64,000 bases of DNA, taken from the sequence record PZ674596.1; one strand, written 5' to 3'. This DNA comes from a phage. Shown one piece after another: positions 1,805 to 57,303 of the stretch. The translations under genes were made by a program, and so were the position numbers. The notes below the pieces were generated by a model. It saw nothing but the letters and a program-made list of their open reading frames with translations, ran no database searches and was not told the DNA's origin. Within the stretch, counting starts at the first letter, position 1, and every line of letters begins with the position of its first letter.

Positions 1805-4800
1805 ATGAAGGCACTGATGGTTCGAACTGACTTCTCACTTGGGGAGTCGGCTCTAAAAGCAGAAAACGCGGTGAAGATTGCCAGAGAAGCTGGCTACACC
1901 GCTGTAATTTCAGCAGATAGCATGAATATTGCGAGCGTTATTCCACTACAACGTGCCGCTGGTGACGACATGGCGGTTATTTGTGGTGTGAAACTAAACA
2001 TTGTTGATGATCCCACATACGAGCACCGGGCTAAACTTGCTAAAGAATCTATGAGATGTATGGAATCATTAGAGCGAGGACGTAACTACTCGTTTACCGC
2101 TCTAATTAAAAATGAGAAAGGATATCGCGACATCTGCGAACTAATGACGGCGGCCAACACACGAGAACAGTTCTACTTTGTACCGCGTCTCTCGCTCGAA
2201 CAGTTGGTTTCTACATATGCCAAAGGCAACATCATCCTGCTTACTTCCGACATCGGTAGCGTGTTCCAACGCAACGATTTTGCAAAAATCATAAGCACAC
2301 TGATTACAGCGGGTGGAAAAGACAACTTCTATAGTGTGGTTTATCCGCACCCTACCCCATTCTACGACCAGATTAACGTCCGGGCGATGAAAGTCGCCAG
2401 CGCATTGAAAATAGAGCCAGTGGCGTTCTATCCCGCTTATTACGAATCGATCGACGATGCAGACATTAAAGACATTGCGCACATGGTTACGAACAACATC
2501 AAAATCGACCAGCCGCATCGTCTGCGTATCCCCCACCAGCGAGATAACGCCGTCAATGGTCGCCGCCATCTCCTTGAGGCGCTTAAAGCCTTCTCCGTTC
2601 GCATGGATGTGCCGGTAACAGCTGCAATGGCCTCAACAACGCAGGATACCATTATCGATGCCTGCACATGGCGCTGGCATGAATTGCCGCCAGCACTGCC
2701 AAAGATGGCAGACGACGAGCCTGCAACGCTGATGAAACTGGCTGTTGCAGGGCTGCGTAAACGTCTTACCACAAAAGAGTTTGGATACACACCACCTGCT
2801 TCTGAGAACAGGGTTTATGTTGAGCGGCTAAAGTACGAAATGGACACGCTGACTCGCCTGGGATTCTGTGGTTACTTCCTGATGGTACGCGATCTGATGA
2901 ATCACAGCCGTGAAACTGGCATTCCTGTCGGGCCTGGTCGTGGTTCCTCCGCTGGATCTCTGGTGGCATGGTGCATAGGCATAACCAACGTCGACCCAAT
3001 CCGTCACGGTCTTCTGTTTGAGCGTTTCATCAACCCTGAGCGTCTCGACTTGCCAGATGCGGATTTGGACTTCAGCCAGGCACGTCGCCATGAGGTGATC
3101 GAGTATCTGAATGAACGATACGGCGAAGATTACGTTGCAGGTATTCCTAACTTCACATATCTGGGCGCAGCCTCTGCACTACGTGACACCGCTCGTATTT
3201 ATGGTGTGGAGTCCGCAGATATGGCGGTATCAAAAGAGCTGAGGAACGTCGAGGATGATAGCCTTCCATTGGAAGAGCTGCGCGAACAACTGGCAAGTCT
3301 CGACAAATACGCGACAAAATACCCTGATGCATTCAATGCAGCCTGCAAGTTACAAAGCCTTATGCGTGGCTTTGGTAGACATGCGGCAGGGATGATTGTA
3401 GCAGGTGTTCCTCTGACAGAACGTACACCGGTTGAACGACGTGGTGACGCGCGTTGTATCGCATTTGACAAGCGTTACTGCGAGGCTATGGGCCTAATTA
3501 AGCTGGACGTGCTTGGCCTGGCAACTCTCGATTTGCTCGATAGTGCAAAACGCTACATAAAAGAGAACACAGGTGAAGATATCAATCTTGATGCCATTTC
3601 TCTTGAAGATCGCAAGGTGCTGGATGGTTTTGCTGCTGGGTACACTCAAGGTGTTTTCCAGCTTGAATCAGGCCCAATGCGCAAGCTGCTTAAAGATTTA
3701 GGTGGTGGAATTGAGCCAATGAGCTTTAAAACGGTCGTTGCTACGACTGCGCTCTTCCGGCCGGGGCCAATTCAGTCAGGCATGTTGGATGATTATGTTT
3801 CTGTCGCCAAAGGCTTTATGACGCCGGAATCATTACACCCCGTTCTTGATGAACTTACCGCAGAAACAAATGGCGTGATTCTTTATCAGGAACAGACGAT
3901 GAACGCGACTCGATTGCTTGCTGGCTTCACAATGGCTGAAGCTGACGGCGTTCGTAAAGCGATCGGCAAAAAAGACATGGAGAAAATGAAGAGCATGGGT
4001 GAGAAGTTCATCGTTCAGGCTCAAGCTGGCTGGATAGACGTTGAGCTGGAAGATGGCACTACACAGCGCATTCACCGTGCGGAACATTTTAAATGCGAAG
4101 ACGGAACACTGAAAACTGTCGAAGAGGCACTTGAGTACGGCGCAAAACTACCTATAAACGCAGTACGCGTTACAGCGTCACATCCAGGGCTATCAGAGAT
4201 GAAAGCGAAGGAGATCTGGACCGCATTCGAAAAGAATGGTGCCTACCAGTTCAACAAATCACACTCTGTTGCTTACTCCTTAATCAGTTATCAATCTATG
4301 TGGTTGAAAACTCATTATCCCGCAGAGTTTTTCGCTGCTGCTCTCACTATTCTTGGCGAAGATAAACACCAGGGGCTGGTTAAAGATGCGCTGACCTATG
4401 GTATTCGCGTATTGCCACCAGACGTTAACGTGTCATCTAACCGAATCGAGATCCGCACGCTTGAAGATGGCAGCCAGGTGCTGTATGCGCCCTTCTCTGC
4501 TGTGAAAGGGTGTTCTGAGAATGGCTGCCAAGCCATCATGAGAGCGCGAGAAAAAGTTGGCGGCAAATTCGAGTCACTGGCGCAATTCGAAGAAGCTGTC
4601 GAGAAACGTGCCTGTAATAGTCGAGTGCGCGAATCACTGCAAAAAGTAGGTGCGTTTGCATCCATCGAGCCAGGTAGTCTGCCAGCAACTGATCCAGAGC
4701 GTCTCCGCGACCAGGCTGAATTGATGGGAAACCTTGTCATAGACGCAGTTAAAGCCTCACGTCCGTTTGAGATGAACCCCAAACGTTCGGCTGAAATTAA

Positions 4801-12111: not shown

Positions 12112-12158
12112 ATGCAAACTGACTGCGGCACGTTCCGCAGTCATATTTCATAGTCGTC

Positions 12159-12691
12159 ACCGCTGACAGCATACACAATCAACTACCGCTGATAGCATAT
12201 CGAGAGTCTATCTCACCGCTCACAGCATACTTTACTCGATTTTTTACCGCTGACAGCATACTTAAGAAATTGCATGAATAATGTGTCCCGGTATGGGTAT
12301 AACCAGAACAAAATTACCGCTGGCAGCATACGAATGTCTGACATATACCATTAATTACCGCTGATAGCATATCCAAACAAAAATTCCTCAATAAAACACC
12401 GCTGACAGCATACGTTCTATCAGGGAGTAGCAGGCAATAAATGCCTTTCACTACAAGCAATCAGCGCAATAGCAATAGAATGTTAGTGAGCGCAAACCTA
12501 TATGGAATGCACTCTTCGAGGTTAGTAACCACTGGGGAGGTATGACAGAGCATTGAGTGGTGATAGATGATTTACCGCTCACAGCATACGTTCATCTCAC
12601 TATACCGCTGGTAGCATATCTTTAACCGTTCACAGCATACTTTTCAGAAAAATAGCCGCTGATAGCATACATTTCACCGCTGACAGCATAT
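12159..12691. repeat. iteron array: 12 direct copies of 16-bp ACCGCTGACAGCATAC (incA-like, downstream of repA)
   Basis: Copies start near 12159, 12185, 12215, 12246, 12316, 12357, 12398, 12574, 12604, 12625, 12655, 12676; all in one orientation, 1-2 mismatches each. Confidence 0.85.
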
Positions 12692-13785
12692 CAAAGCAGT
12701 TTGAGACTATTGGAAAGGATCTCAATCATCTTGATATTTTCAGGCGTCAAATTCTGCGAAAGTTCGGTTATCTTGTTGATAATGTTCTGTTTGGCATCAA
12801 TTTCCCCAGCTTTCTCATCTGGTTTTTTGGGTTCGATGTCTTCAGGTTTTGGCGGTGCGACTTTGAGTTTTGGATTGCGGCTGTGAATCTGGATATAGAT
12901 CGACCGCCCACGCTTAATCTCGCTGTATTCGAGATAGCCCAAATCTTGGAGAGCTTTTAAGCCGTTACGTATAGTCTGATTCTGCGAGCTGACATTCCTG
13001 CTACTCAAATTGAGTCGCGCACGCAATCGAGCAAGCGATACCGGCGCAGGCTTGGTTGGAAGACTTTCGATGAAGGTGTACAGAGCCTGTGCTGTTTCTT
13101 TGCGTGGTAGCTTATTGATAACCTTTAACTGCAAAAGAACCTTATGGTCAAAGCGATATAGTTCGGCCAGCTTCGGTTCTGCATAGAACACCACCGTATC
13201 TTTCTGCTCGTTGTAGTCCACGCTATTGATGAGGTGCACCATCAGAAGCGAGATCTTGTTAGAGCCGTCGACGTTCTTTTCTTCATACGTTCTCTGGAAA
13301 GACAGAGTTGTACGCATGATCTTCAAAAGACTGTTTGTAAGCCGGTCGCGGAGTGTTTTGCGGATCTGTGACGATGGATAGCCACAAAACTTAGCAAATT
13401 TCGTGATGCTTAACTCGACACGACCGTTAGGTTCGCCGTATTCTGCCAGCGAACGCACAACGCCCACCCACGTTTTGAAATCATGATCCATGTCGAGACG
13501 AGGACCGGTTATCTTGATATCGGAATAGCCTTCAGAACGGGCTACTTCGAGCTGGACAAGCTCCTTTGAAGCATCGATCTCATTTGGCTTGTTACGTTTA
13601 CTGTATTTTGTTCCCTTAAGCGTGGGGACGAACAACCCCAGTCGCATCAACGCAATTGGTTGGACTGTATTGTTGCTATTAGGGACAAGTTCCCCTGTGT
13701 ACAATTCAAGGGAACCTTCTTCAAAGTTGTCGATGTTATCTTCTACTTCTTTGTTATTTTTACCTTTTTTATTTTTTGTGGACAT
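12691..13785 (-). CDS. repA: plasmid replication initiator RepA (P1 RepA / RepFIB-like)
   Basis: 364 aa from ATG 13785 (the table's N-terminal 40 aa is read-through of the iteron region); motifs SNNTVQPIALMRLG, DIKITGPRLDMD, LYTFIESLP, HSRNPKLK match my recollection of P1 RepA; flanked by iterons on both sides. Confidence 0.8.
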   Translation of the reverse strand: MSTKNKKGKNNKEVEDNIDNFEEGSLELYTGELVPNSNNTVQPIALMRLGLFVPTLKGTKYSKRNKPNEIDASKELVQLEVARSEGYSDIKITGPRLDMDHDFKTWVGVVRSLAEYGEPNGRVELSITKFAKFCGYPSSQIRKTLRDRLTNSLLKIMRTTLSFQRTYEEKNVDGSNKISLLMVHLINSVDYNEQKDTVVFYAEPKLAELYRFDHKVLLQLKVINKLPRKETAQALYTFIESLPTKPAPVSLARLRARLNLSSRNVSSQNQTIRNGLKALQDLGYLEYSEIKRGRSIYIQIHSRNPKLKVAPPKPEDIEPKKPDEKAGEIDAKQNIINKITELSQNLTPENIKMIEILSNSLKLL

Positions 13786-13805
13786 GTGGACACCTTTGTC
13801 ATTCA

Positions 13806-13907
13806 ACCGCTGACAGCATACTTGATTTGCCGCTGACAGAATACCAAAAACAGTTGGCAGCATACGGTGAACCGCTGACAGACTATCAATTACCGCTGAC
13901 AGCATAC
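13806..13907. repeat. upstream iterons (4 full + 1 half copy), incC/origin-like
   Basis: Same 16-bp iteron near 13806, 13829, 13871, 13892 plus half-site GGCAGCATAC near 13856. Confidence 0.75.
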
Positions 13908-32946: not shown

Positions 32947-33039
32947 CGGCTGTTAGTGCATATGCATTGACCATCTCTGCGTAAGCAATTTATGTAATTA
33001 GAAAACAACTTGTTTTGACAAATAATAAAAGGAAAGCAC

Positions 33040-42959: not shown

Positions 42960-43022
42960 AAGGCCACTAGTTGTGGCCTTAAACAATTTGTTTTCTACCT
43001 TTTCTTGTTCGAGAAAATAACG
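42960..43022 (+). promoter_or_regulatory. conserved terminator-promoter cassette
   Basis: AAGGCCACTAGTTGTGGCCTT followed by AAACAATTTGTTTTCTACCTTTTCTTGTTCGAGAAAATAAC. Confidence 0.55.
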
Positions 43023-43115: not shown

Positions 43116-43505
43116 ATGGGCTTCCCTTCTCCTGCGGCGGATTATGCTGAGAGCCGTATTTCTCTTGATCAGCAGATAATTAGACATCCTTCAGCGACCT
43201 ACTTCATGAGAGCGGCTGACAGCCATCATCGTGAGGGAATATTGCAGGGCGCATTGCTGGTGGTCGATTCCTCACTTACCCCGGTTGATGGTTCTCTGCT
43301 TGTATGCGCTCTGGATGGGGAATATCGCGTAAAAAGATACCGGAAGTATCCACGTCAGCATCTGGAGGATTTAAGAACTGGTAAGAAGGAAGCATTGCCA
43401 AAGGATGACGATGGATGCACGGGCAGCAATGCCGTGTTTGGTGTGATCACTCACATTATCAACGACGCAAGAAGTGGCGAGTTTGATGATTGTCCCGTGA
43501 TGTAG
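43116..43505 (+). CDS. humD: UmuD'-like protein lacking the N-terminal arm (HumD-like)
   Basis: 129 aa beginning MGFPSPAADY, i.e. at the UmuD Cys24-Gly25 processing site; Ser and Lys of the catalytic dyad alignable (ADSH; VKR); P1 HumD has the same form. Confidence 0.75.
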   Translation: MGFPSPAADYAESRISLDQQIIRHPSATYFMRAADSHHREGILQGALLVVDSSLTPVDGSLLVCALDGEYRVKRYRKYPRQHLEDLRTGKKEALPKDDDGCTGSNAVFGVITHIINDARSGEFDDCPVM

Positions 43506-43542: not shown

Positions 43543-44643
43543 TCACACTGCGCGGAATGCGATTTCGCCAGGTATTACTTCACCTTGCCAATACATTTGG
43601 GCAGCAACGCGATCTGCGAGGTCACGATAAATAGCTGTAAATTCGCTATCTGGACGACTAATAACGGTTGGTGTTCCGTTATCCAGATCTTCACGAAGAG
43701 AGATATGAAGTGGCATTTGGCCTAACAACTGCGTGTTGTATTTCTCGGCCAGTTTCTGTGCGCCACCGGTGCCAAAAATTGGCTCGTGATGACCGCAGTT
43801 ACTGCAAATATGCACACTCATGTTTTCAACGATACCCAGTACCGGCACTTCGACTTTTTCGAACATCACAATGCCTTTCTTCGCATCGATCAGCGCGATG
43901 TCTTGCGGCGTAGTTACCACAACCGCACCAGTTACAGGAATGTTCTGCGCCAGCGTCAACTGAATATCACCAGTGCCCGGCGGCATATCGAGAACAAGAT
44001 AGTCCAGATCAGGCCACAATGTTTCCTGCAACATCTGCATTAACGCCTTGCTCGCCATCGGTCCACGCCACACCATTGCATTGTCGTCGGTGACCAGATA
44101 ACCAATAGAGTTGGTTGCCAGGCCATGAGACATGATAGGTGCCATGTGAGTACCGTCAGGTGAGGTTGGACGTTGGTTTTCCGCGCCCAGCATGGTTGGA
44201 ATTGATGGACCATAGATATCGGCATCCAAAATACCAACTTTCGCACCTTCAGCAGCCAACGCCAGTGCCAGGTTTACCGCCGTGGAGGATTTACCCACGC
44301 CGCCCTTGCCTGAGCTGACGGCGATAATGTTCTTAACGCCATTAATGCCTGGTTGGTTTTTGACGCGCTTAAGCGTGGCAATGTTGTACGACAGCTTCCA
44401 GTCAATAGCCTTTGCGCCAGTGATACGGAGCAGATCACCACTACATTGCTCTTTCAGGTCTTCAAAAGGCTTATTCCACACGAAAGGCATGATTAGTTCG
44501 ACATGCAGTGTGTCATCCATCAACGCAACATGGTGTAACGCTTTAAGCGTAGTCAGGTTGTGTTTCAGGGTTGGGTGCTGAAAATTAGCCAGCGTACCGG
44601 CTACCATTGCTCTCAGGGCATCCGGCGATTTGGACTCGCTCAT
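43543..44643 (-). CDS. mrp: Fe-S cluster carrier ATPase Mrp/ApbC (host-type)
   Basis: 366 aa; deviant Walker A SGKGGVGKSS; matches my recollection of enterobacterial Mrp. Confidence 0.9.
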   Translation of the reverse strand: MSESKSPDALRAMVAGTLANFQHPTLKHNLTTLKALHHVALMDDTLHVELIMPFVWNKPFEDLKEQCSGDLLRITGAKAIDWKLSYNIATLKRVKNQPGINGVKNIIAVSSGKGGVGKSSTAVNLALALAAEGAKVGILDADIYGPSIPTMLGAENQRPTSPDGTHMAPIMSHGLATNSIGYLVTDDNAMVWRGPMASKALMQMLQETLWPDLDYLVLDMPPGTGDIQLTLAQNIPVTGAVVVTTPQDIALIDAKKGIVMFEKVEVPVLGIVENMSVHICSNCGHHEPIFGTGGAQKLAEKYNTQLLGQMPLHISLREDLDNGTPTVISRPDSEFTAIYRDLADRVAAQMYWQGEVIPGEIAFRAV

Positions 44644-44800
44644 CCCGTCTCCTTTATTTTAATTTGCGCAATTGTCGCCTTGTAGTGTACTCCAGCTACG
44701 ACATTTAATCATTTATGAGAAATGCTGTTATCACATGGCAGACATAAGGCCATTTTGTTACTATCAAGCCCCTTTTCACTACAAAGAAGTAATGCCTACT

Positions 44801-46834
44801 ATGACCCAAGTCGCGAAGAAAATTCTGGTGACGTGCGCGCTGCCGTACGCTAACGGCTCAATCCACCTCGGCCATATGCTGGAGCACATCCAGGCTGATG
44901 TCTGGGTTCGTTACCAGCGAATGCGCGGCCACGAGGTTAATTTCATCTGTGCCGACGATGCCCACGGTACGCCGATCATGTTGAAAGCACAGCAGCTTGG
45001 TATCACACCGGAGCAGATGATTGGCGAAATGAGTCAGGAACATCAGACTGATTTCGCAGGCTTTAACATCAGCTATGACAACTATCACTCGACGCACAGC
45101 GAAGAGAACCGTCAGTTGTCCGAGCTTATCTATACTCGCCTGAAAGAGAACGGTTTTATTAAAAACCGCACCATCTCTCAGCTGTACGACCCGGAAAAAG
45201 GCATGTTCCTGCCGGACCGTTTTGTAAAAGGCACATGCCCGAAATGTAAAGCGCCGGATCAATACGGCGATAACTGTGAAGTCTGCGGCGCTACTTACAG
45301 CCCGACTGAACTGATCGAGCCGAAATCGGTAGTTTCTGGTGCTACGCCGGTAATGCGTGATTCCGAACACTTCTTCTTTGATCTGCCTTCTTTCAGCGAA
45401 ATGTTGCAGGCATGGACCCGCAGCGGTGCGTTGCAGGAGCAGGTGGCAAACAAAATGCAGGAGTGGTTTGAATCTGGCCTGCAACAGTGGGATATCTCCC
45501 GCGATGCGCCGTACTTCGGTTTTGAAATTCCGAACGCACCGGGCAAATATTTCTACGTCTGGCTGGACGCGCCGATTGGCTACATGGGTTCCTTCAAGAA
45601 TCTGTGCGACAAACGCGGCGACACTACCAGCTTCGACGAATACTGGAAGAAAGACTCCACCGCCGAGCTGTACCACTTCATCGGTAAAGATATCGTTTAC
45701 TTCCACAGCCTGTTCTGGCCTGCCATGCTGGAAGGCAGCAACTTCCGCAAGCCGACCAACCTGTTTGTTCACGGCTATGTGACGGTGAACGGCGCGAAGA
45801 TGTCCAAGTCTCGCGGCACCTTTATTAAAGCCAGCACCTGGCTGAATCATTTTGACGCCGACAGCCTGCGTTACTACTACACTGCGAAACTCTCTTCGCG
45901 CATTGATGATATCGATCTCAATCTGGAAGATTTCGTTCAGCGTGTGAATGCCGATATCGTTAACAAAGTGGTTAACCTGGCCTCCCGTAATGCAGGCTTT
46001 ATCAACAAGCGTTTTGACGGCGTGCTGGCAAGCGAACTGGCTGACCCGCAACTGTACAAAACCTTTACTGATGCCGCTGAAGTGATTGGCGAAGCATGGG
46101 AAAGCCGCGAATTTGGCAAAGCTATCCGTGAAATCATGGCACTGGCTGACCTGGCTAACCGCTATGTTGATGAACAGGCTCCGTGGGTGGTGGCGAAGCA
46201 GGAAGGACGCGATGCCGATCTGCAGGCGATTTGCTCTATGGGCATTAACCTGTTCCGCGTGCTGATGACGTACCTGAAACCGGTACTGCCGAAACTGACT
46301 GAACGTGCAGAAGCATTCCTGAATACAGAACTGACCTGGGATGGTATCCAGCAACCGCTGCTGGGCCATAAAGTGAATCCGTTCAAGGCACTGTATAACC
46401 GTATCGATATGAAACAGGTGGAAGCACTGGTGGAAGCATCCAAAGAAGAAGTGAAAGCCACAGCTGCACCGGTAACTGGCCCACTGGCTGACGACCCGAT
46501 TCAGGAAACCATCACCTTTGACGACTTCGCCAAAGTTGACCTGCGTGTGGCGCTGATTGAAAACGCGGAGTTTGTCGAAGGTTCTGACAAACTGCTTCGC
46601 CTGACGCTGGATCTCGGTGGTGAAAAGCGTAATGTCTTCTCAGGCATCCGTTCCGCTTATCCAGATCCACAGGCACTGATTGGTCGTCACACCATTATGG
46701 TGGCTAACCTGGCACCACGTAAAATGCGCTTCGGTATCTCTGAAGGCATGGTGATGGCTGCTGGCCCCGGCGGGAAAGATATCTTCCTGTTAAGCCCGGA
46801 TGCTGGTGCTAAACCTGGCCACCAGGTTAAGTAA
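44801..46834 (+). CDS. metG: methionyl-tRNA synthetase (host-type)
   Basis: 677 aa from ATG 44801 (table ORF has spurious 43-aa extension); [16 protein letters not shown], Zn knuckle CPKCK..CEVCG; near-identical to enterobacterial MetG as I recall it. Confidence 0.95.
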
Positions 46835-46856
46835 TTAAACAACCTCTCTTCGCAAT

Positions 46857-46880
46857 GCCCGGCAACACGCCGGGCATTTT
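46857..46880 (+). terminator. Rho-independent terminator after metG
   Basis: GCCCGGC-aacac-GCCGGGC followed by ATTTT. Confidence 0.7.
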
Positions 46881-46995
46881 CATATAGACACAATCCCTCC
46901 TGATTTACACAAGCCCTAAAACAATTTGTTTTCTACCTTTTGTTGATTGAGATAATAAGCCACATAAGAAAACAACTTGTTTTGGAGTAGTTGAA

Positions 46996-47295
46996 ATGTT
47001 GAACATTACCCAAGCCTACCAGGTGGCATTGATCAGTTCATCTCATACATCAGAGGAAGATGCTCGCCGATTCATGATCGCAAGCAATGAGCTGGATTGG
47101 GTTTCACAAATTGATGGCGGTTGTATTGTTCACGCCGGGTTACAGGATGATGTCTGGAAAGACGACTTGCGTCGATATGGTATATCCGAAGGCGCGATTG
47201 CTAACATTCAGAAAGTACTTGATGTAGGCTTTGACTCTGTACATTTTGATTGTGGAGCACCAGTCGTTGAAGGGCTTGAGTGCTGGAACTGGTAA
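46996..47295 (+). CDS. hypothetical protein
   Basis: 99 aa; preceded by AAAACAACTTGTTTT palindrome and GGAG. Confidence 0.45.
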   Translation: MLNITQAYQVALISSSHTSEEDARRFMIASNELDWVSQIDGGCIVHAGLQDDVWKDDLRRYGISEGAIANIQKVLDVGFDSVHFDCGAPVVEGLECWNW

Positions 47296-47340
47296 CAGAT
47301 ATTAAAGCATTGGTAGTTTGTTTTTAGGATTATCAAAGAA

Positions 47341-48075
47341 ATGAAAAAGTTGAAAAGTTTAGAAATCCCTGGGACTGGTTATAAATTCTTTATGGACAAC
47401 GCGGAGTGTGCGCCTAACGCGTTGGAAAAAATACAAAGTCTTATCAACAGCCTTACTGAAGAAGCGAAAGAACTGAAGAGCGAGGCGACAAAGGACAATA
47501 CAGCTAAAATCCAATGCTTAAATCTCGTTTCTTATTGTTTATATCAAGTGTCCAAAACACTGATTAAAGGCAATATCTATTACGACGATGAAGACACCTC
47601 GACACCTGAAGAAAAAGATAGCGATGAAGAACTCTATGAAGATATCTCTACCAGTGCGGGTCACGCTGCCTTCGATGCTATGGGTGAATCGTCAGGCATC
47701 AGATCGTTTGTTGAACAGAACAATTCGACAATAATGATTGAGTACTGTGAACAAACAAGCTCCAAGGCCATACATGTTCTTCACGATGTTGCTGCAGGGG
47801 TTCGCTGTGAGGCTGAAGCGGTCAGAAAAGATGTATTTGGTGCAGACAGTAATACCGTGAAAGCGTTCATCAACAGTGCTCTGCTAAATTCTTACTCAAA
47901 CCTTATCGTCAATGCGGCACTATGCGCAAATTCAGGTGAAGAACACATTGTCATAACTGAAACCAAACATGAGCATCAACAGTCACCAACCATAGAAGAG
48001 GTAACTGCATTGGCTATCAAACAGGCGAGTGAAATTAGTGATGAAATTCTCTCTCTGCTAAACAAAACTATGTAA
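47341..48075 (+). CDS. hypothetical protein
   Basis: 244 aa; acidic central region. Confidence 0.5.
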   Translation: MKKLKSLEIPGTGYKFFMDNAECAPNALEKIQSLINSLTEEAKELKSEATKDNTAKIQCLNLVSYCLYQVSKTLIKGNIYYDDEDTSTPEEKDSDEELYEDISTSAGHAAFDAMGESSGIRSFVEQNNSTIMIEYCEQTSSKAIHVLHDVAAGVRCEAEAVRKDVFGADSNTVKAFINSALLNSYSNLIVNAALCANSGEEHIVITETKHEHQQSPTIEEVTALAIKQASEISDEILSLLNKTM

Positions 48076-48189
48076 AACATTGATAATGGCGGTCAAAATT
48101 TGATTCTTTTCTATAAGAATCCGTTGATCGCCACTACTCCCCTTCCATACCTGCAATCATACCCTTAAATATCAATAGGTTATGGTTGT

Positions 48190-48935
48190 TTATACAAATA
48201 AGAAAACAACTAAATAACAGATCAACGAAACGTCAACGCTTTCACCCGATTTGGTCTAAAAAATTGACGTTTTCACACATCACTTCTTATACCCGTAACT
48301 CTACGCAGCAGACAGCGCCACAGCGTCCAATTTTCACCACAGACGACCCAACACACTACCAACAAAAACACACGCTCAAAATCGCTCCCGTTGCGTTACA
48401 CAACCATATAAACAACTTATTTTCAGGCATAACAAAACAACTAAATAACACACATGCCATTCCCAAAAACAACCAACCTCTTTATGGCAGGCTACCGAAA
48501 AGACCCACCTCTTCTCCCCAGGCTACCGGACAACCAACCTAACTTTCACAGGCAATCCGAAAACATTCATACGCGCGATACCCACGACACGCCATTCCCC
48601 AAACAGCGAAGAAACACCAGAATCACTGAAACCCCAACGAAGCCTGTAACCGCAAGGATTCTCTCAATCCCAAAAGACACGAAACAGAACAATCACGGGA
48701 AACGCCATTACCCAATACACGAATAACTACAAAAGCCTTTCACACACTCCAGACAAACAACTCAAACACAATAACGAAAGGAATCGCCCACCTGCCATTA
48801 CTCCATACACGGAGAAGAACAATCACCAAAACGACGAGAACACCCCATAGAAGAACCACCGCAAAACGAACGAAACCACATACACCGACAGAGAAAACAG
48901 CACACCCAATTCACCAACAGAAATAGTCGCCGTAT
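48190..48935 (+). repeat. G-depleted A/C-rich low-complexity tract with dispersed direct repeats
   Basis: ~750 bp with almost no G on plus strand; 17-mer AAAACAACTAAATAACA twice (near 48199 and 48434); GCCATT(C/A)C(C/T)C-type repeats near 48456, 48591, 48704, 48794. Confidence 0.7.
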
Positions 48936-49127
48936 AGAACATTCTGGAAGGAGTGAGCATTAACGCCTATAGAGAGGTTGAGACAGATAAAACACAACAT
49001 GTATAGCGAAGAAGCCAGGTATGTATAAGTGGGGAGGGAAGGAGGGGTGTCGCCTCCTTTTTCGTATTTATTCAACTCCTGATTTTATCCCCCGTAACAC
49101 CCCTACGGTCAGCCTTCGGTCCATACA

Positions 49128-49266
49128 GGGAAAAGGCTGCATCCCGCTACAGAAACGGCTGGGTTGCCTTCGGGGAACGGCTGGGGATTTTCAGGGAAAC
49201 GGTCGAGTTGCCTGTGTGGATTTCGGGAAAAGGCTCGATGCCGGTTCAGGAACGGTGGCGTACCGG
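49128..49266 (+). repeat. tandem imperfect repeats RGGAAAMGGCT (6 copies, ~21-31 bp period)
   Basis: GGGAAAAGGCTGCATCCCGC, AGAAACGGCTGGG, GGGGAACGGCTGGGG, AGGGAAACGGTCGAG, GGGAAAAGGCTCGATGCCGG, AGGAACGGTGGCG; related 20-mers at 52353-52395. Confidence 0.7.
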
Positions 49267-49616
49267 TATAGCGAGAGGGAGAGTTGCGGCTACCCACCTG
49301 TAATGTGCGGGAAGAAGAGAGGCGCTCACGTAGGCGGACTTGCTTACCGCTGGATTCCCTCTGAATGCCCAGCTACAGCGTAATTGTGCCAGACAGCCAA
49401 CGGGTCACAATCGATTTCAGTAGGTTTTTGGGGAGAGGATTACTCTGCCACCAGCCACTTTCGGCCACTAAATCAGAATAATGTAAAAAGTGTACTCGGT
49501 ACTGAACCTGAAAACTCACTGCCAAAACCACATTCACCGGAATAAAATCCTTTTTCGCCTGTGCGTTATTGCGATAATAACACCATCAAGAAAACATGTT
49601 GTTTAAGGATTGCTTT

Positions 49617-49946
49617 ATGTTTACAAACATCGACATCAACCAAATCAAGAAATTAACTCAAAAAGAGTTTGATCAGTTTTATGAGTTAGAAGGTTGGTCT
49701 TCCACTCTGATCAATTCAAGATGGGTGCTGGAACTGATGACTCGTGATGACGCACCTGCTTTGATGATTTGCGACATGGGTGAAGATGCTGACTTTATGG
49801 ATATGAGCGAATTTTGTGTGGACACATACAACCGCAGCCAGAAGTACTACTTCACATGCGATAGCGAGAATGACGTTATTTCTAAGGTCTATCTTCACCT
49901 TGTCCAGCATTGGGACGTTCAGGAGTTTCTTGAAGTATTCGAGTAA
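49617..49946 (+). CDS. hypothetical protein
   Basis: 109 aa from ATG 49617 after AAGGA; table start 49596 lies in the promoter palindrome. Confidence 0.4.
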   Translation: MFTNIDINQIKKLTQKEFDQFYELEGWSSTLINSRWVLELMTRDDAPALMICDMGEDADFMDMSEFCVDTYNRSQKYYFTCDSENDVISKVYLHLVQHWDVQEFLEVFE

Positions 49947-50099
49947 CCCCAACCAAAGCCAGCATTGCTGGCTTAATTTCTCTATAGCCGCAGGGAAGAA
50001 CCTGCATATCGCTCATGCACCTGATCAATATGCTTTGTAGCCGTTTTCTTACTGGTATTATTTACGCCATTGAGAAAACAAGTTGTTTACGGAGTTGTA

Positions 50100-50411
50100 A
50101 TGAAAAAATCATTGGTTCTTGGTCTGGACAAAGACCAGAAGAGAAAAGAGAAGCCTGCGCTGGTTGCTCAATTAACTTTGCTGGACATCGTTGCCAATGG
50201 AACCTCTATTCGTCTGTTCCGTGAAACAGCGGTGTCTTTCGATAAAAACACCTTTACTCGTTATGTAATGAATGTTCGTCGCCAGCGTGGAAAAGGCTGG
50301 GTGGCATTTCAAAGAATGTGGCCGGAACATCAGCTCGAACTGGCTTTGATGGAAGTTAACCGCGTGGCCCAGCAAGAGATTCAGAGAGCATCAGTGATGG
50401 CAATAGCCTGA
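50100..50411 (+). CDS. hypothetical protein
   Basis: 103 aa from ATG 50100 after ACGGAG. Confidence 0.45.
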   Translation: MKKSLVLGLDKDQKRKEKPALVAQLTLLDIVANGTSIRLFRETAVSFDKNTFTRYVMNVRRQRGKGWVAFQRMWPEHQLELALMEVNRVAQQEIQRASVMAIA

Positions 50412-51425: not shown

Positions 51426-51775
51426 ATATGGGCGATTTCAAGAAACGCCTGAAGGAAAGAGCCGAGATGGTCAGAAAGCAAAACGCCTCTTCTGTCATCA
51501 GATACGCAAGGCAGTTTAGTCGCAACAACAAATCAGTTGAGGAAAAGATCCTTAGCGTAATCGTGCGATAATTATTAAGGCCACCAGCATTGGTGGTCTT
51601 AAATGACCATCCTGTTTCCCTCAGGCTAATAACACCAACCTCTTACCTCCAGGCAACCGACAAACCCACCTGTTCCCGTCCGGCTACCGCAACTTTCCAC
51701 TTTGACGCCTTATTCGTACAACGATAATTAACGCCAACAAGAAAACAATTTGTTATTTACGATAAGGAATTAATC

Positions 51776-52258
51776 ATGAATTTTATCGCTACTGTAAACG
51801 CACCCGCACATGGCAATATCGCTGTAACGTTCTCTGACATTGAAAAACGAGTACTTGGTGCATGGCGCGACAATGAGACGGTAGAACTGTCAGCACAAGA
51901 AAAATGCATTATTGCACGCGACATCATTGGCAATCGTCGTTACTCGAGGGTATTTGAGAAAGCATATGTGGTAAATTCTGGATTCGGAACGTTCGTCTTT
52001 CCGGTGCGCTCCGGGCGATTCTGCCAGTCCAAGCTGATTGAGTTCGCTACGCAGATTTCTTTCTGGATTAAAACTCAATCGTCGTTCAAATTTTCCGACG
52101 ATGAAGCAGTATCGCAGGGGATGCGGATCGCCAACAATGCGATTAAATGCAAAAACATTACGTATACCGCTGGCGTTGATACATGGAAACTGTTTTGCGC
52201 TAACTTTATGCTGAATGTATACGCAAGCAACCGCATCCACATCCTTGATGGCGTGTAA
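51776..52258 (+). CDS. hypothetical protein
   Basis: 160 aa; ATG after AAGGAATTAATC. Confidence 0.5.
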   Translation: MNFIATVNAPAHGNIAVTFSDIEKRVLGAWRDNETVELSAQEKCIIARDIIGNRRYSRVFEKAYVVNSGFGTFVFPVRSGRFCQSKLIEFATQISFWIKTQSSFKFSDDEAVSQGMRIANNAIKCKNITYTAGVDTWKLFCANFMLNVYASNRIHILDGV

Positions 52259-52288: not shown

Positions 52289-52511
52289 CTATAGCCACCA
52301 GCTGCCGCAGGGAAATTTTCAGAAGCGGCGAGGAACGTATTCATGAGCCGACGGGGGAACGGCCAGGATTTTTTCGGGAAACGGCTGCATTCGCCTTTGT
52401 GTAGAAAAAACATCGGGAAGCTGGTGGAATCCAACCAGCGGTTGTCGGACAGGTGAGCGGGGAAAATTATGATGACTTTCGTCACCTGAGACATCCAGAT
52501 TTCTTTCGTAG

Positions 52512-54622: not shown

Positions 54623-55144
54623 TCAAAACGGTAAAATTCGTTCAACCCAATCGAAGAATACAAGTGTTTTTCTGCCGTCTTCTAACTTAAGAGTGACCTG
54701 GCAAGCATCAACGCCTCTTGATATCCCTTCTATTTCACGACCGTCTGCCATGTAGACCCTTATAGATTTGCCGTTTTGGTAAGCCTGACGACATATCTTA
54801 AAAAAGTCACGACGTGATGGCTGATTGTCAACATAGTCTGGATGTATTGTTAGCCTACCTTTGAACTCGCGAGCAATGCCATCGATTACACCTGATTCAA
54901 TTGTGCTAATGCGCTCAAGTGGGAGTCTTATACGATTTTCTTTATCATATGGAAGCGGGCATAAATCTAGCTTATTGCGGGAAGGCATTGTCCCCTGAAC
55001 GTACATGCAAAACACCTGACCGTCTTCAAGCGTGACTCTTACAGGAATGTTGTTTTTCCGCCAGAACATAAGTATGTTTTCAGCATGTTCGTAGTCTCGT
55101 GGCCAGACTTCTGCTGGAATGCCGTAGGTGATGTCTTTAACCAT
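54623..55144 (-). CDS. hypothetical protein with internal tandem repeat of ~80-aa domain (weak Sm/Hfq-like signature)
   Basis: 173 aa; halves share R..N.IPVRVTLEDGQV / GKSIRVYMADGREIEG pattern; ends 3 nt before the secreted-protein gene. Confidence 0.45.
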   Translation of the reverse strand: MVKDITYGIPAEVWPRDYEHAENILMFWRKNNIPVRVTLEDGQVFCMYVQGTMPSRNKLDLCPLPYDKENRIRLPLERISTIESGVIDGIAREFKGRLTIHPDYVDNQPSRRDFFKICRQAYQNGKSIRVYMADGREIEGISRGVDACQVTLKLEDGRKTLVFFDWVERILPF

Positions 55145-56169: not shown

Positions 56170-57303
56170 TTAATTGGCGTTTTCGTTCTTCTCTTTTTTG
56201 CTAATTTCATCACATGCAAGGTTCATTATGTCTATGTTTTCTTGTTTTTGAAGGTTGCCGACAATTTTTTGGCGCAATTCATAAAATCGCTCGCGTGGTA
56301 TAGCTTCCTTGTTGCCGCTGATGTGAAGTATTGCGTGACAGCTAGGGCAGACGGCAATCAGATCTGTTTTTGGGTTCACGCTTCGTGCACCTTCGCCTTG
56401 TGAAAGTGGGATGATGTGGTGAGCGTGTAGCAGCGTTTTCGTTTCTTTACCGTCAATTTCCTTGCCGTATATTTCCGACATCGTTCTGCAACATAGTTGA
56501 CACCTGTAGTCTGCGTTTGCCAGAACGTCATTCCTTAACCCGGATACGCGGCTACGATGTTGCGACTGGATTAATCTTGTTTCGCCCTCTATATATTCCT
56601 CAACTTCTTCTTTCTGGAGGTCGTAGCTGATTTCTTCTTGAGTTACGTTGTCTTCTGCTTTGGCTGAGACTGCATGAATCTCTTTCTTATTCAACGAGAA
56701 AGGTGATTTGAGAGCATCAGCACTGTTTTGCCCTCTTGAATGTTGTGATTTTAGAGCAAGATTGTAAATCTCTTTTAATTTGACATTTTTTTTGTTTGTT
56801 CTAAAGAACTTTCTGCTCTCTACTTGTGAGATAATCCCTGATTCTATATATTGAATTAACACACGAAGAAAATGTTCTATAGATTTTTTACTTTTGAATG
56901 AAAAGGAATAGCCGACTTTCTTTCTCAACTCGTTTTCGCTAAAGAACTCTTTCAGATTTTCGTCGTCAGTCAGGTTAATGGTTGCACCTGCCCAGGTTGA
57001 AGCTTCTACAATTTCAGGAATAACCTCTTGGTCGCCAAGCTGATTGTTTATTTCATCCAGCATTTTAAAGACTGTCAATATTGGATACGGATTCGTCACC
57101 AGACCGTTAGAGGATTTCGTTCTAGGCCCATTCTTTTTTATAATGATGGGGTGCTGTTGAGAAGTTTTCTTTAATTGTAAATAATAAAGGTTTATATTAT
57201 TATTCGTTGATATACCTGCCGGTTTTATCAAGGATAATTTTTCATCACATGCAATATCATCTATTATATTTCTTAGGTCACACGTTTTTATAAATTGACG
57301 CAT
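56170..57303 (-). CDS. HNH-nuclease-domain protein with unknown N-terminal domain
   Basis: 377 aa; C-terminal CQLCC...HAHHIIPLS...CPSCH HNH signature; low GC; RBS GGAGGA lies in a CCTCCGAA/TTCGGAGG hairpin. Confidence 0.6.
   Translation of the reverse strand: MRQFIKTCDLRNIIDDIACDEKLSLIKPAGISTNNNINLYYLQLKKTSQQHPIIIKKNGPRTKSSNGLVTNPYPILTVFKMLDEINNQLGDQEVIPEIVEASTWAGATINLTDDENLKEFFSENELRKKVGYSFSFKSKKSIEHFLRVLIQYIESGIISQVESRKFFRTNKKNVKLKEIYNLALKSQHSRGQNSADALKSPFSLNKKEIHAVSAKAEDNVTQEEISYDLQKEEVEEYIEGETRLIQSQHRSRVSGLRNDVLANADYRCQLCCRTMSEIYGKEIDGKETKTLLHAHHIIPLSQGEGARSVNPKTDLIAVCPSCHAILHISGNKEAIPRERFYELRQKIVGNLQKQENIDIMNLACDEISKKEKNENAN

Follow-up and report, generated by a model that had tools for sequence, protein, structure and literature searches.

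The stretch of DNA analyzed here (the window; 64,000 nucleotides [nt] of sequence record PZ674596.1, one strand, 5′ to 3′) is from an SSU5/pHCM2-type phage-plasmid, a type of element that is common in clinical Escherichia coli, Klebsiella, Salmonella, Enterobacter, and Citrobacter and carries resistance genes. We found that a tract at positions 48190 to 48935, rich in A and C on the plus strand, is the body of a conserved, plus-strand, non-coding unit with a promoter-like site at its start, a hairpin at its end, and an operator in between; the unit is silent in lysogeny. We tentatively read this unit as a very long, Rho-loading (rut-like; rut, Rho utilization), conditionally terminated leader or barrier, with a probability of about 0.35. 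An earlier note, made from the letters of the window alone, had described the tract as a low-complexity sequence with almost no G and taken it for a transcribed non-coding unit or cis-acting site; the observation proved to be real but partly misdescribed and is thus partly confirmed, and the interpretation is partly supported. The tract lies in a 1.5-kb block that is among the largest conserved non-coding regions of SSU5/pHCM2-type phage-plasmids and is blank in RefSeq.

The plus strand of the tract contains 299 A, 239 C, 92 G, and 116 T (40.1, 32.0, 12.3, and 15.5%, respectively; A+C, ∼72%), versus means of 28% A, 22% C, 24% G, and 26% T for the 64-kb window. At the scale of 746 nt, the maximum of A, the maximum of C, and the minimum of T of the window all lie no more than ∼110 nt from the tract; the minimum of G is ∼160 nt upstream and overlaps it. 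The ratio of C to G was ≥1.5 in every 78-nt subwindow from 48197 to 48953 (757 nt); elsewhere in the 64 kb, the longest run of this kind comprised 137 subwindows. Composition, this run, and the coding tests described below define the body of the unit:

48197 to 48953, plus strand: non-coding body, A/C-rich, G/T-depleted, and poor in start codons

The strand skew, once computed, is therefore real and the extreme of the window. The description "almost no G" is wrong, since 92 Gs are present, G is halved, and T is depleted equally. Nor is the tract a low-complexity AAC/ACA sequence: it compresses like its own shuffles (258 versus 265 ± 3 bytes), and both ACA (48 versus 46.5) and AAC (46 versus 43.0) occur at the frequencies expected from dinucleotide shuffles. 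Tandem Repeats Finder reported a single array in the tract (16 nt, 2.2 copies), and no DNA bending or helical periodicity was found in it. Triplets of the form NTG are depleted about eightfold (5 versus 41 ± 8 per 746 nt), and stop triplets number 17 compared with a window mean of 35.

The tract is non-coding. In RefSeq, the interval from the upstream gene to the gene that starts at 49596 holds no annotation, and six independent plasmids are blank here. The records of SSU5, Cyrano, and pJN2-26 have small open reading frames (ORFs) annotated inside the tract, differing in position and strand, and together with a fourth record they give the following calls (positions in the respective records):

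L003 (Cyrano), 4087 to 4443: CYRAN_103
L002 (SSU5), 4373 to 4612: SSU5_108
L004 (pJN2-26), 4666 to 4788: small ORF
L083, 3278 to 3820: ORF called over the tract

The call in L083 at first sight suggested a natural deletion of the tract, which we rejected, as it is a spurious gene call over an intact tract. Plus-strand open frames of 90 to 141 codons do exist, because a T-poor sequence has few stop triplets, and some depositors annotated ORFs in this region; the tract might on these grounds encode a low-complexity protein rich in Thr, Pro, Gln, Asn, Lys, and His, as in the annotation of CYRAN_103 and SSU5_108. We consider such a product extremely improbable and largely excluded. The annotated ORFs are inconsistent between records and have no RefSeq counterpart, the indels among homologues (1, 2, 5, 16, and 23 nt) shift the frame, and no open frame is shared across homologues, the longest ones varying in both length and frame. 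The period-3 power of the tract is 1.0, compared with 3.0 to 8.4 in neighboring genes, the 118-amino-acid ORF in the tract has no match in Pfam, and the CYRAN_103 signal falls to 0 (see below). The ORFs called inside the tract in public records are thus almost certainly spurious, a by-product of its stop-codon-poor composition. A conserved, codon-biased ORF was looked for in the homologues and is absent, and, as the earlier note had stated, no long minus-strand ORF crosses the tract.

The unit is widespread among related elements. A 1-kb query around the tract matched 243 E. coli plasmids (∼110 kb) and no chromosomes, the phages Cyrano, CMS-2020a, and PhiR41_1 (95 to 97% identity), Salmonella phage SSU5 (70%), and six Klebsiella phage-plasmids (∼74%). 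The tract is present in 839 PLSDB plasmids of Klebsiella, Escherichia, Enterobacter, Salmonella, Citrobacter, and Cronobacter and in 67 viral contigs. The left border of the homology coincides with the edge of a variable accessory-gene region, which holds metG, apbC, or other genes depending on the lineage. Composition is kept in 64 of the 64 usable homologues (A, 34 to 41%; C, 29 to 32%; G, 12 to 18%; T, 16 to 19%), whose pairwise identities range from 57 to 93%. The most distant relative found (L082), in which the neighboring anchor protein is 50% identical, has the same layout; its tract has no similarity to that of the window detectable by blastn, and its 688-nt body consists of 39% A, 29% C, 19% G, and 14% T, with 5 NTG triplets.

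Moderate evidence from these alignments suggests that selection keeps G and T out of the plus strand. The composition survives 30 to 40% divergence, the A+C content is higher at conserved alignment columns (72%) than at variable ones (57%), and new mutations run against the bias, all of which argues for selection on one strand. Among polarized low-frequency polymorphisms in the E. coli clade, A/C-to-G/T changes outnumbered the reverse by 32 to 14 (binomial P = 0.011 in a small sample, with a contrast between frequency classes that does not reach significance by itself), versus 67 to 54 in the adjacent unbiased flank. A 0.75-kb stretch selected for strand composition rather than for its exact sequence is unusual in bacteria. 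The skew could instead be a by-product of strand-asymmetric mutation, the minus strand being repeatedly single-stranded and subject to deamination of C to U and of A to hypoxanthine, and the composition would then be functionless. The heavy strand of vertebrate mitochondrial DNA is G/T-rich through such deamination, and the direction of the bias seen here (A/C-rich and G-depleted on one strand) matches that general pattern. Mutational skew is nevertheless very unlikely and largely excluded: the bias is weakest at the least constrained columns, the low-frequency polymorphisms run opposite to the prediction of a mutational equilibrium, and the tract is no more divergent between the window and SSU5 (31%) than the adjacent non-coding block (30%).

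The unit and its surroundings contain the following features, in order from left to right:

48087 to 48133, plus strand: hairpin A, a nested inverted repeat with the invariant loop TTTCTATAAG, at the left edge of the homology whichever gene lies upstream
48198 to 48219, plus strand: copy 1 of the half-operator-like 22-mer ATAAGAAAACAACTAAATAACA, containing the 17-mer of the earlier note
48226 to 48274, plus strand: inverted repeat CGAAACGTCAAC ... (G)TTGACGTTTTC, a conserved block that pairs in the centroid fold
48264 to 48292, plus strand: promoter-like site TTGACG-17 nt-TTATAC (or TATACC at 18 nt), with a predicted start at ∼48299
48410 to 48422, no strand assigned: operator palindrome AAACAACTTATTT, a perfect AAACAANTTGTTT in most other lineages
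48429 to 48450, plus strand: copy 2 of the 22-mer, 95% identical to copy 1 (21/22)
48456 to 48822, plus strand: dispersed direct repeats GCCATTAC(C/T)C(A/C)ATACACGGAGAAGAAC, starting at 48456, 48591, 48704, and 48794
48467 to 48558, plus strand: X repeats, a 31-nt tandem repeat in three copies, ACCnACCTcTT-N5-9-CAGGCTACCG, from repeat search and alignment
49024 to 49062, plus strand: invariant GGTATAAG, a homopurine G-rich block (GGGGAGGGAAGGAGGGG), and a hairpin with a T-run, the hairpin itself at 49036 to 49062
49128 to 49260, plus strand: Y repeats, six GGGAAAMGGCTGG-like direct repeats with a period of ∼22 bp, iteron-like, outside the tract but in the same conserved non-coding block
49570 to 49604, plus strand: promoter/operator cassette of the next gene (49596 to 49946), which closes the 1.5-kb unannotated block

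Within the unit, the X repeats are followed by the GCCATTAC...GGAGAAGAAC repeats, a purine-rich tail, and the GGTATAAG end block; past the 3′ hairpin, a short, conserved, AT-rich stretch (CGTATTTATTCAA) leads to the Y repeats. The claim that the tract lies between a promoter-like motif and a hairpin was borne out, both being conserved (in 66/66 homologues and 29/29 variants, respectively).

In 66 of 66 homologues, the two hexamers of the promoter-like site (TTGACG, 48264 to 48269; TTATAC, 48287 to 48292) stand exactly 17 nt apart, and the spacer between them occurs in 16 distinct sequences; L082, with TTGACA-17-TTATAC, is among these homologues. Fixed hexamers with varied spacers are expected of a real promoter, and we regard the site as a candidate on this ground. 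A strict consensus promoter scan did not call the TTGACG-17-TTATAC site, because its −10 element is non-canonical, being without the canonical A2 and T6. The right arm of the inverted repeat at 48226 to 48274 overlaps the −35-like hexamer, and L082 has an equivalent inverted repeat, GTCAAA...TTTGAC.

Both ends of the unit and its folding point to the plus strand. As RNA, the tract folds with ∼−0.12 kcal/mol per nt on the plus strand and −0.25 kcal/mol per nt on the minus strand. The 3′ hairpin near 49040, confirmed here with its T-run at 49036 to 49062, forms in 29 of 29 distinct variants, with 1 to 5 G·U pairs. In every one of them, the plus-strand fold has the higher stability (mean of −12.0 kcal/mol, versus −6.6 kcal/mol for the minus strand). 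Members of the SSU5 group do not conserve the T-run that follows the stem. Hairpin A is nearly invariant in an alignment of 12 representatives, and three variants of its stem gave −21.1, −17.4, and −13.2 kcal/mol for the plus strand and −20.8, −10.0, and −9.9 kcal/mol for the minus strand. It has no U-run. L082 has an unrelated 10-bp stem (TCAACCTCTC/GAGAGGTTGA) around the same loop, and the left arm is absent in pJN2-26 (L004). The end hairpins favor the plus strand because their stems use G·U pairs, and the genes flanking the tract are all encoded on the plus strand, in the same orientation. Since folding, hairpins, and the strand of the flanking genes agree, plus-sense RNA, or plus-sense transcription itself, appears to be under constraint. 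A long-range pairing of the 5′ C-rich segment or the X repeats with the 3′ purine block (stable at ∼−25 and ∼−16 kcal/mol) was considered and rejected, as cognate partners paired no better than non-cognate ones and no covariation was seen.

Expression was assessed with RNA sequencing (RNA-seq) data for E. coli LF82 carrying the phage-plasmid Cyrano, which is 96 to 97% identical here (PMC9928086, S1 table). The published values are log2(FPKM+5) (FPKM, fragments per kilobase per million mapped reads) for ten samples, counted per annotated ORF and possibly not strand-specific (PMC9928086). CYRAN_103, which corresponds to 48186 to 48542 of the window, had a value of 2.32, i.e., 0 FPKM, in both LB (lysogeny broth) samples and of 2.7 to 4.3 in the other eight, so that its maximum in the ten was ∼14 FPKM (PMC9928086). 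The upstream gene, CYRAN_102, had values of 5.6 to 9.2 (∼57 normalized in LB), and CYRAN_105, the next downstream gene with its own cassette, reached 7.8 (PMC9928086). No canonical intrinsic terminator was found between the upstream gene and the tract. Because CYRAN_102 is expressed and CYRAN_103 is near 0, the unit is silent in lysogens, with no continuation from the upstream gene. The idea of a transcribed unit was not borne out by these data, there being no transcript in lysogens (0 FPKM in LB), and is plausible on structural grounds only; if a transcript of the tract exists, it is made outside lysogeny.

Rho of E. coli loads on RNA that is C-rich, G-poor, unstructured, and untranslated over ∼80 nt or more. 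The tract has the composition of a rut site (C, 32%; G, 12%; C/G of ≥1.5 over 757 nt) and also its lack of structure and translation (∼−0.12 kcal/mol per nt, 5 NTG triplets, no conserved ORF, and no period-3 signal), and, with start codons depleted eightfold, ribosomes cannot shield its RNA. Our reading of the unit as a Rho-loading leader is based on these conditions, C-rich, G-poor, unpaired, and untranslated, holding without interruption for ∼750 nt. It is based further on the drop of the LB signal from ∼57 to 0 without an intrinsic terminator and on the position at the border of the accessory region, as well as on the evidence for selection, the plus-strand hairpins at both ends, and the composition and architecture kept in L082. 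In this model, RNA polymerase arriving from the upstream accessory-gene block, or starting at the unit's own promoter, would be released within the tract, and in lysogens the release may be aided by repressor on the internal operator, acting as a roadblock. Transcription would thus stop short of the G-rich block, the 22-bp array, and the early genes beyond, and passage in the lytic cycle would require that repression be lifted and termination be overcome. Such a gate, if real, would reveal a way for a phage-plasmid to prevent its lytic program from being set off by foreign accessory genes.

Several points weigh against this reading. About 100 nt suffices for a rut site, so that a simple terminator would need neither 750 nt nor a conserved promoter of its own. 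The depletion of T equals that of G and is not a requirement of Rho, which accepts UC as well as CC, and the conserved repeat families (GCCATTAC... and X) are left unexplained by a Rho model. The downstream genes have their own promoters, and a target to be protected is therefore not evident. The −10 element (TTATAC or TATACC) is non-canonical, which makes the promoter putative; the RNA-seq data cover lysogens only, per annotated ORF, with uncertain strandedness; and Rho dependence itself is a prediction.

The same features would also suit an RNA that acts in trans. According to this alternative, a lytic-phase long non-coding RNA of ∼770 nt, made from the unit's own promoter, unstructured, poor in start codons, G, and U, and capped by the 3′ hairpin, would serve as a sponge or scaffold. 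Its motifs (GCCAUUAC...GGAGAAGAAC four to five times, ACCnACCUcUU...CAGGCUACCG three times, and many GAAGAAC/GAAAAC) would titrate an RNA-binding protein, for which Rho, Hfq, and a phage FljA-like protein are candidate partners. A dedicated, conserved promoter-like site with an operator, terminal hairpins specific to the plus strand, and selection on strand composition would all be accounted for, as would the occurrence of several unrelated motif families that are all A/C-rich and lie on the same strand in direct orientation; a post-transcriptional repressor of the FljA family is, moreover, conserved 6 kb away in every member, Klebsiella included. We nonetheless regard a sponge as unlikely. 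No transcript was observed in the lysogen RNA-seq data, and Rho should end the synthesis of an unprotected RNA with such a composition before it is complete. An Rfam scan of 46800 to 50200 gave no match with an E value of ≤1. The motifs tried for CsrA, Hfq, and MazF-type proteins (GGA, A-R-N, and ACA) are not enriched beyond dinucleotide composition: GGA occurred 5 times (5.4 expected), and A-R-N runs of ≥4 and ≥3 triplets occurred 1 and 6 times, respectively, versus 0.9 ± 1.0 and 4.8 ± 2.0 in dinucleotide shuffles. The proposed resemblance of the A-rich triplets to Hfq distal-face motifs is accordingly a matter of composition alone.

The FljA-like protein is encoded at 54623 to 55144 on the minus strand (173 amino acids) and matches FljA, the post-transcriptional repressor of phase-1 flagellin, over its full length (Pfam PF03614; E value, 3e-82). 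It has a weak, sub-threshold Hfq-like C terminus, occurs in 12 of 12 SSU5-type phage records, including six from Klebsiella, and is expressed in Cyrano lysogens. Klebsiella is described as non-flagellate. Given its conservation in Klebsiella phage-plasmids and its expression in lysogens, the protein may have a phage RNA, and not fliC, as its target. A link between this protein and the tract through the 9-mer ACCCAATAC, common to a tract repeat and the 5′ untranslated region of E. coli fliC, the known target of FljA, was dismissed; the resemblance is not significant (score of 18 versus a shuffle mean of 18.3), which also counts against the sponge.

The operator palindrome of the tract belongs to a larger set. 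It always lies 116 to 118 nt after the −10-like hexamer. In the window, perfect AAACAANTTGTTT palindromes occur eight times (at 33003, 33732, 42981, 46919, 46970, 49592, 50076, and 63316) versus ∼0.06 expected, with near-copies at 48410 and 51743. Most copies are part of a cassette, GATAAT-N-GCCAnn-AAGAAAACAAnTTGTTT-N15-25-ATG, located before small plus-strand genes, and these cassettes recall the promoter-stem-loop cassettes of T4. Judging from this arrangement, they probably constitute the operator regulon of an early-gene repressor. Beside the operator at 42981 lies a gene for an S24 peptidase (43116 to 43505, plus strand), which is a HumD-family (UmuD-like) subunit of a translesion polymerase (NCBIfam E value, 8e-66) rather than a repressor of the LexA type; in Cyrano lysogens, the gene (CYRAN_98) is expressed at a high level. 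The 22-mer of the tract shares AAGAAAACAA with the neighboring promoter/operator cassettes and is without the second half of the palindrome. The 17-mer that the earlier note had reported is a real repeat and part of this 22-nt repeat, but its copies are spaced 231 nt apart, not 235. Other parts of the tract resemble degenerate neighboring cassettes, for instance, ACGCCATT...GAGAAGAACAA compared with ACGCCATTGAGAAAACAA at 50073.

Of the repeats, the four GCCATTMC-type copies noticed before were confirmed, with spacings of 135, 113, and 90 nt; they are the four plus-strand copies in the tract, and the entire window, both strands included, has only nine matches in total. Across homologues, GCCATT as a hexamer shows a 24-fold enrichment, and the SSU5 group has one extra copy of the GCCATTAC repeat. 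The X tandem repeat, the palindrome at 48410 to 48422, and the array at 49128 to 49260 had been missed. The iteron-like array with a period of ∼22 bp is confined to the region outside the tract, the repeats of the tract being either the 31-nt tandem or spaced by 90 to 135 nt; L082 has four copies of GGAAACGG at the counterpart of the Y array. In a search of the window and ∼100 kb of the reference plasmid, further copies of X were found only at 51606 to 51689, just upstream of the promoter −35 element of the next-but-three gene; because they recur upstream of a promoter elsewhere, the X repeats need not be RNA elements. This second X array and a second Y array of 22-bp period (GGGAAACGG, 52300 to 52430), at one other locus each, form a pair 3.2 kb farther right that matches the first in order, resembles it in spacing, and brackets an ordinary promoter-gene-terminator unit. 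The gene between them (51776 to 52258) belongs to PHROG 1641. We also asked if the tract is a decayed paralogue of this 160-amino-acid gene and found no tblastn or blastn similarity outside the repeats.

From such repeats one might conclude that the tract is a DNA-level array of binding sites between modules, a regulatory hub or repressor sink for which RNA is irrelevant. The early-gene repressor would bind the palindrome and the half-site-like AAGAAAACAA/GAAGAACAA, other factors would bind the X, GCCATTAC, and Y repeats, and looping to the second X/Y pair might occur. This would agree with the presence of one full and two half operators in the tract and of parts that resemble degenerate promoter cassettes of neighboring genes, with the recurrence of X and Y in the same order 3.2 kb away, with the concentration of the bias in conserved columns, and with the silence of the region in RNA-seq. 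DNA sites, on the other hand, have no reason to be uniformly A/C-rich on one strand, the G·U-paired end hairpins are stable as plus-strand RNA only, and L082 retains the composition while the motifs are changed or absent. We therefore rate an array as somewhat less probable still than a sponge.

A further possibility, and again an unlikely one, is that the unit is part of the lytic replication origin. A transcript would run through the R-loop-averse, C-rich leader and form a stable hybrid at the homopurine G-rich block, and the phage RNase HI would cut this hybrid into a primer near the AT-rich stretch and the 22-bp iteron-like array. The element encodes DnaE, a DnaB-like helicase, primase, RNase HI, a 5′-3′ exonuclease, and ligase, and its plasmid-mode replicon lies elsewhere:

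12153 to 13906: plasmid-mode replicon, with the RepB-family initiator gene at 12691 to 13905 on the minus strand and 15 iterons TATGCTGTCAGCGGT, 4 upstream and 11 downstream

The iterons of this replicon, ∼35 kb from the tract, are unrelated to the tract repeats. For these reasons, the tract was rejected as the plasmid origin or a copy-control locus, and the role in plasmid maintenance entertained in the earlier note is unlikely. A separate lytic origin of this replication-gene-rich element is, by the same token, still unaccounted for. The order of promoter, ∼740 nt, GGGGAGGGAAGGAGGGG, AT-rich CGTATTTATTCAA, and six GGGAAAMGGCTGG repeats is conserved, also in L082. The Y region was rejected as a structured RNA (z scores of +0.75 and +0.55 on the two strands), and its having no excess of RNA structure fits sites that act at the DNA level. 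Speaking against an origin, there is no adjacent initiator gene, second Y (52300 to 52430) and X arrays lie 3.2 kb away, and neither the 740-nt length nor the A/C-richness of the leader is explained. No clear DnaA box was seen by eye in the block apart from a partial TTATCCCCC at ∼49084, and a scan allowing one mismatch found 0 sites.

Elements of these ideas can be combined with Rho: a lytic-only RNA of ∼770 nt built of A and C, unable to fold or to be translated and with few RNase E sites, might act as a decoy for Rho or another single-stranded-RNA-binding protein or as a Rho-gated primer at an R-loop origin. We hold this to be improbable, to about the same degree as the sponge and the origin taken singly. 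If true, a decoy or primer RNA would be a phage RNA device of a kind not described before; more generally, a sponge would represent a new type of phage regulatory RNA, and an R-loop origin would locate the lytic origin of the family. In the literature searched, no description of the tract region or of SSU5 non-coding RNAs was found.

The genomic setting, in which a Rho-loading leader would separate accessory from early genes, was taken from an annotated, 99%-identical plasmid. In the orientation of the window, replication and nucleotide-metabolism genes are followed by the RepB-family replicon, then by a captured host apbC-metG pair, two small genes, and the 1.5-kb unannotated stretch with the tract; to the right of it are small genes with no function assigned, a leftward block, and ParB-like and terminase genes. 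The neighboring genes fall into PHROG families of unknown function. With the terminase genes ∼15 kb distant, the tract is unlikely to be a packaging site. The apbC (mrp) and metG genes at 43543 to 46834 are a captured host segment with a full-length metG, in place of which other lineages have different genes; on the E. coli chromosome, the two genes are divergently arranged. A protein of 377 amino acids encoded at 56170 to 57303 (minus strand) matches the NCBIfam IscB model over residues 208 to 353 far below threshold (E value, 2.4e-5; 23.6 bits versus a cutoff of 175), and this match possibly reflects a mere shared nuclease domain.

Several known systems share traits with the unit. The three tandem repeats of ∼31 nt on the transcribed strand recall the ToxI-like antitoxins of type III toxin-antitoxin systems; here, there is no gene for a ToxN/AbiQ-type toxin, no gene at all for 1 kb, and no Rfam match. 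T4-type PeSL cassettes, in which an early promoter and a stem-loop flank small genes and mediate shuffling, resemble the promoter-plus-AAACAANTTGTTT cassettes of the neighboring genes, and the tract holds one full and several degenerate cassettes at the edge of a variable region. It differs from them in being a 0.75-kb, gene-free block with a composition of its own, and the palindrome is more likely a repressor operator. With the sponge RNAs CsrB/RsmZ (for CsrA) and CrcZ (for Hfq/Crc), the tract has in common repeated short motifs in an unpaired context and a hairpin end, and CrcZ is likewise A-rich with CA motifs; it differs from these RNAs in having no excess of GGA or A-R-N, no Rfam match, and no expression in the lysogen data.

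With ColE1 RNA II, T4 oriF/oriG, and the mitochondrial LSP-CSB region (light-strand promoter and conserved sequence blocks), the unit shares a promoter-like site several hundred nucleotides before a G-rich block, at which the RNA could form a persistent hybrid, and AT-rich and repeat elements adjoin this block; the phage-plasmid also has an RNase H gene. The likeness is one of layout only. ColE1 RNA II itself has extensive structure and is regulated by an antisense RNA, whereas the leader of the tract is structure-poor. Set beside lambda nut and HK022 put, hairpin A has an invariant loop, with its stem swapped in L082 and its left arm missing in pJN2-26. Rho-dependent terminators and rut sites, such as lambda tR1 and long Rho-controlled untranslated leaders, would be the nearest parallel in mode of action and share with the tract a C-rich, G-poor, weakly structured, untranslated RNA past a stop codon, a stable hairpin without a U-run just upstream, and the loss of signal without an intrinsic terminator. 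Stable hairpins without a U-run are common at the processed 3′ ends of Rho-terminated transcripts. Compared with these sites, the tract is ∼10 times longer, depleted of T, and equipped with its own promoter-like site, an internal operator, and conserved repeats.

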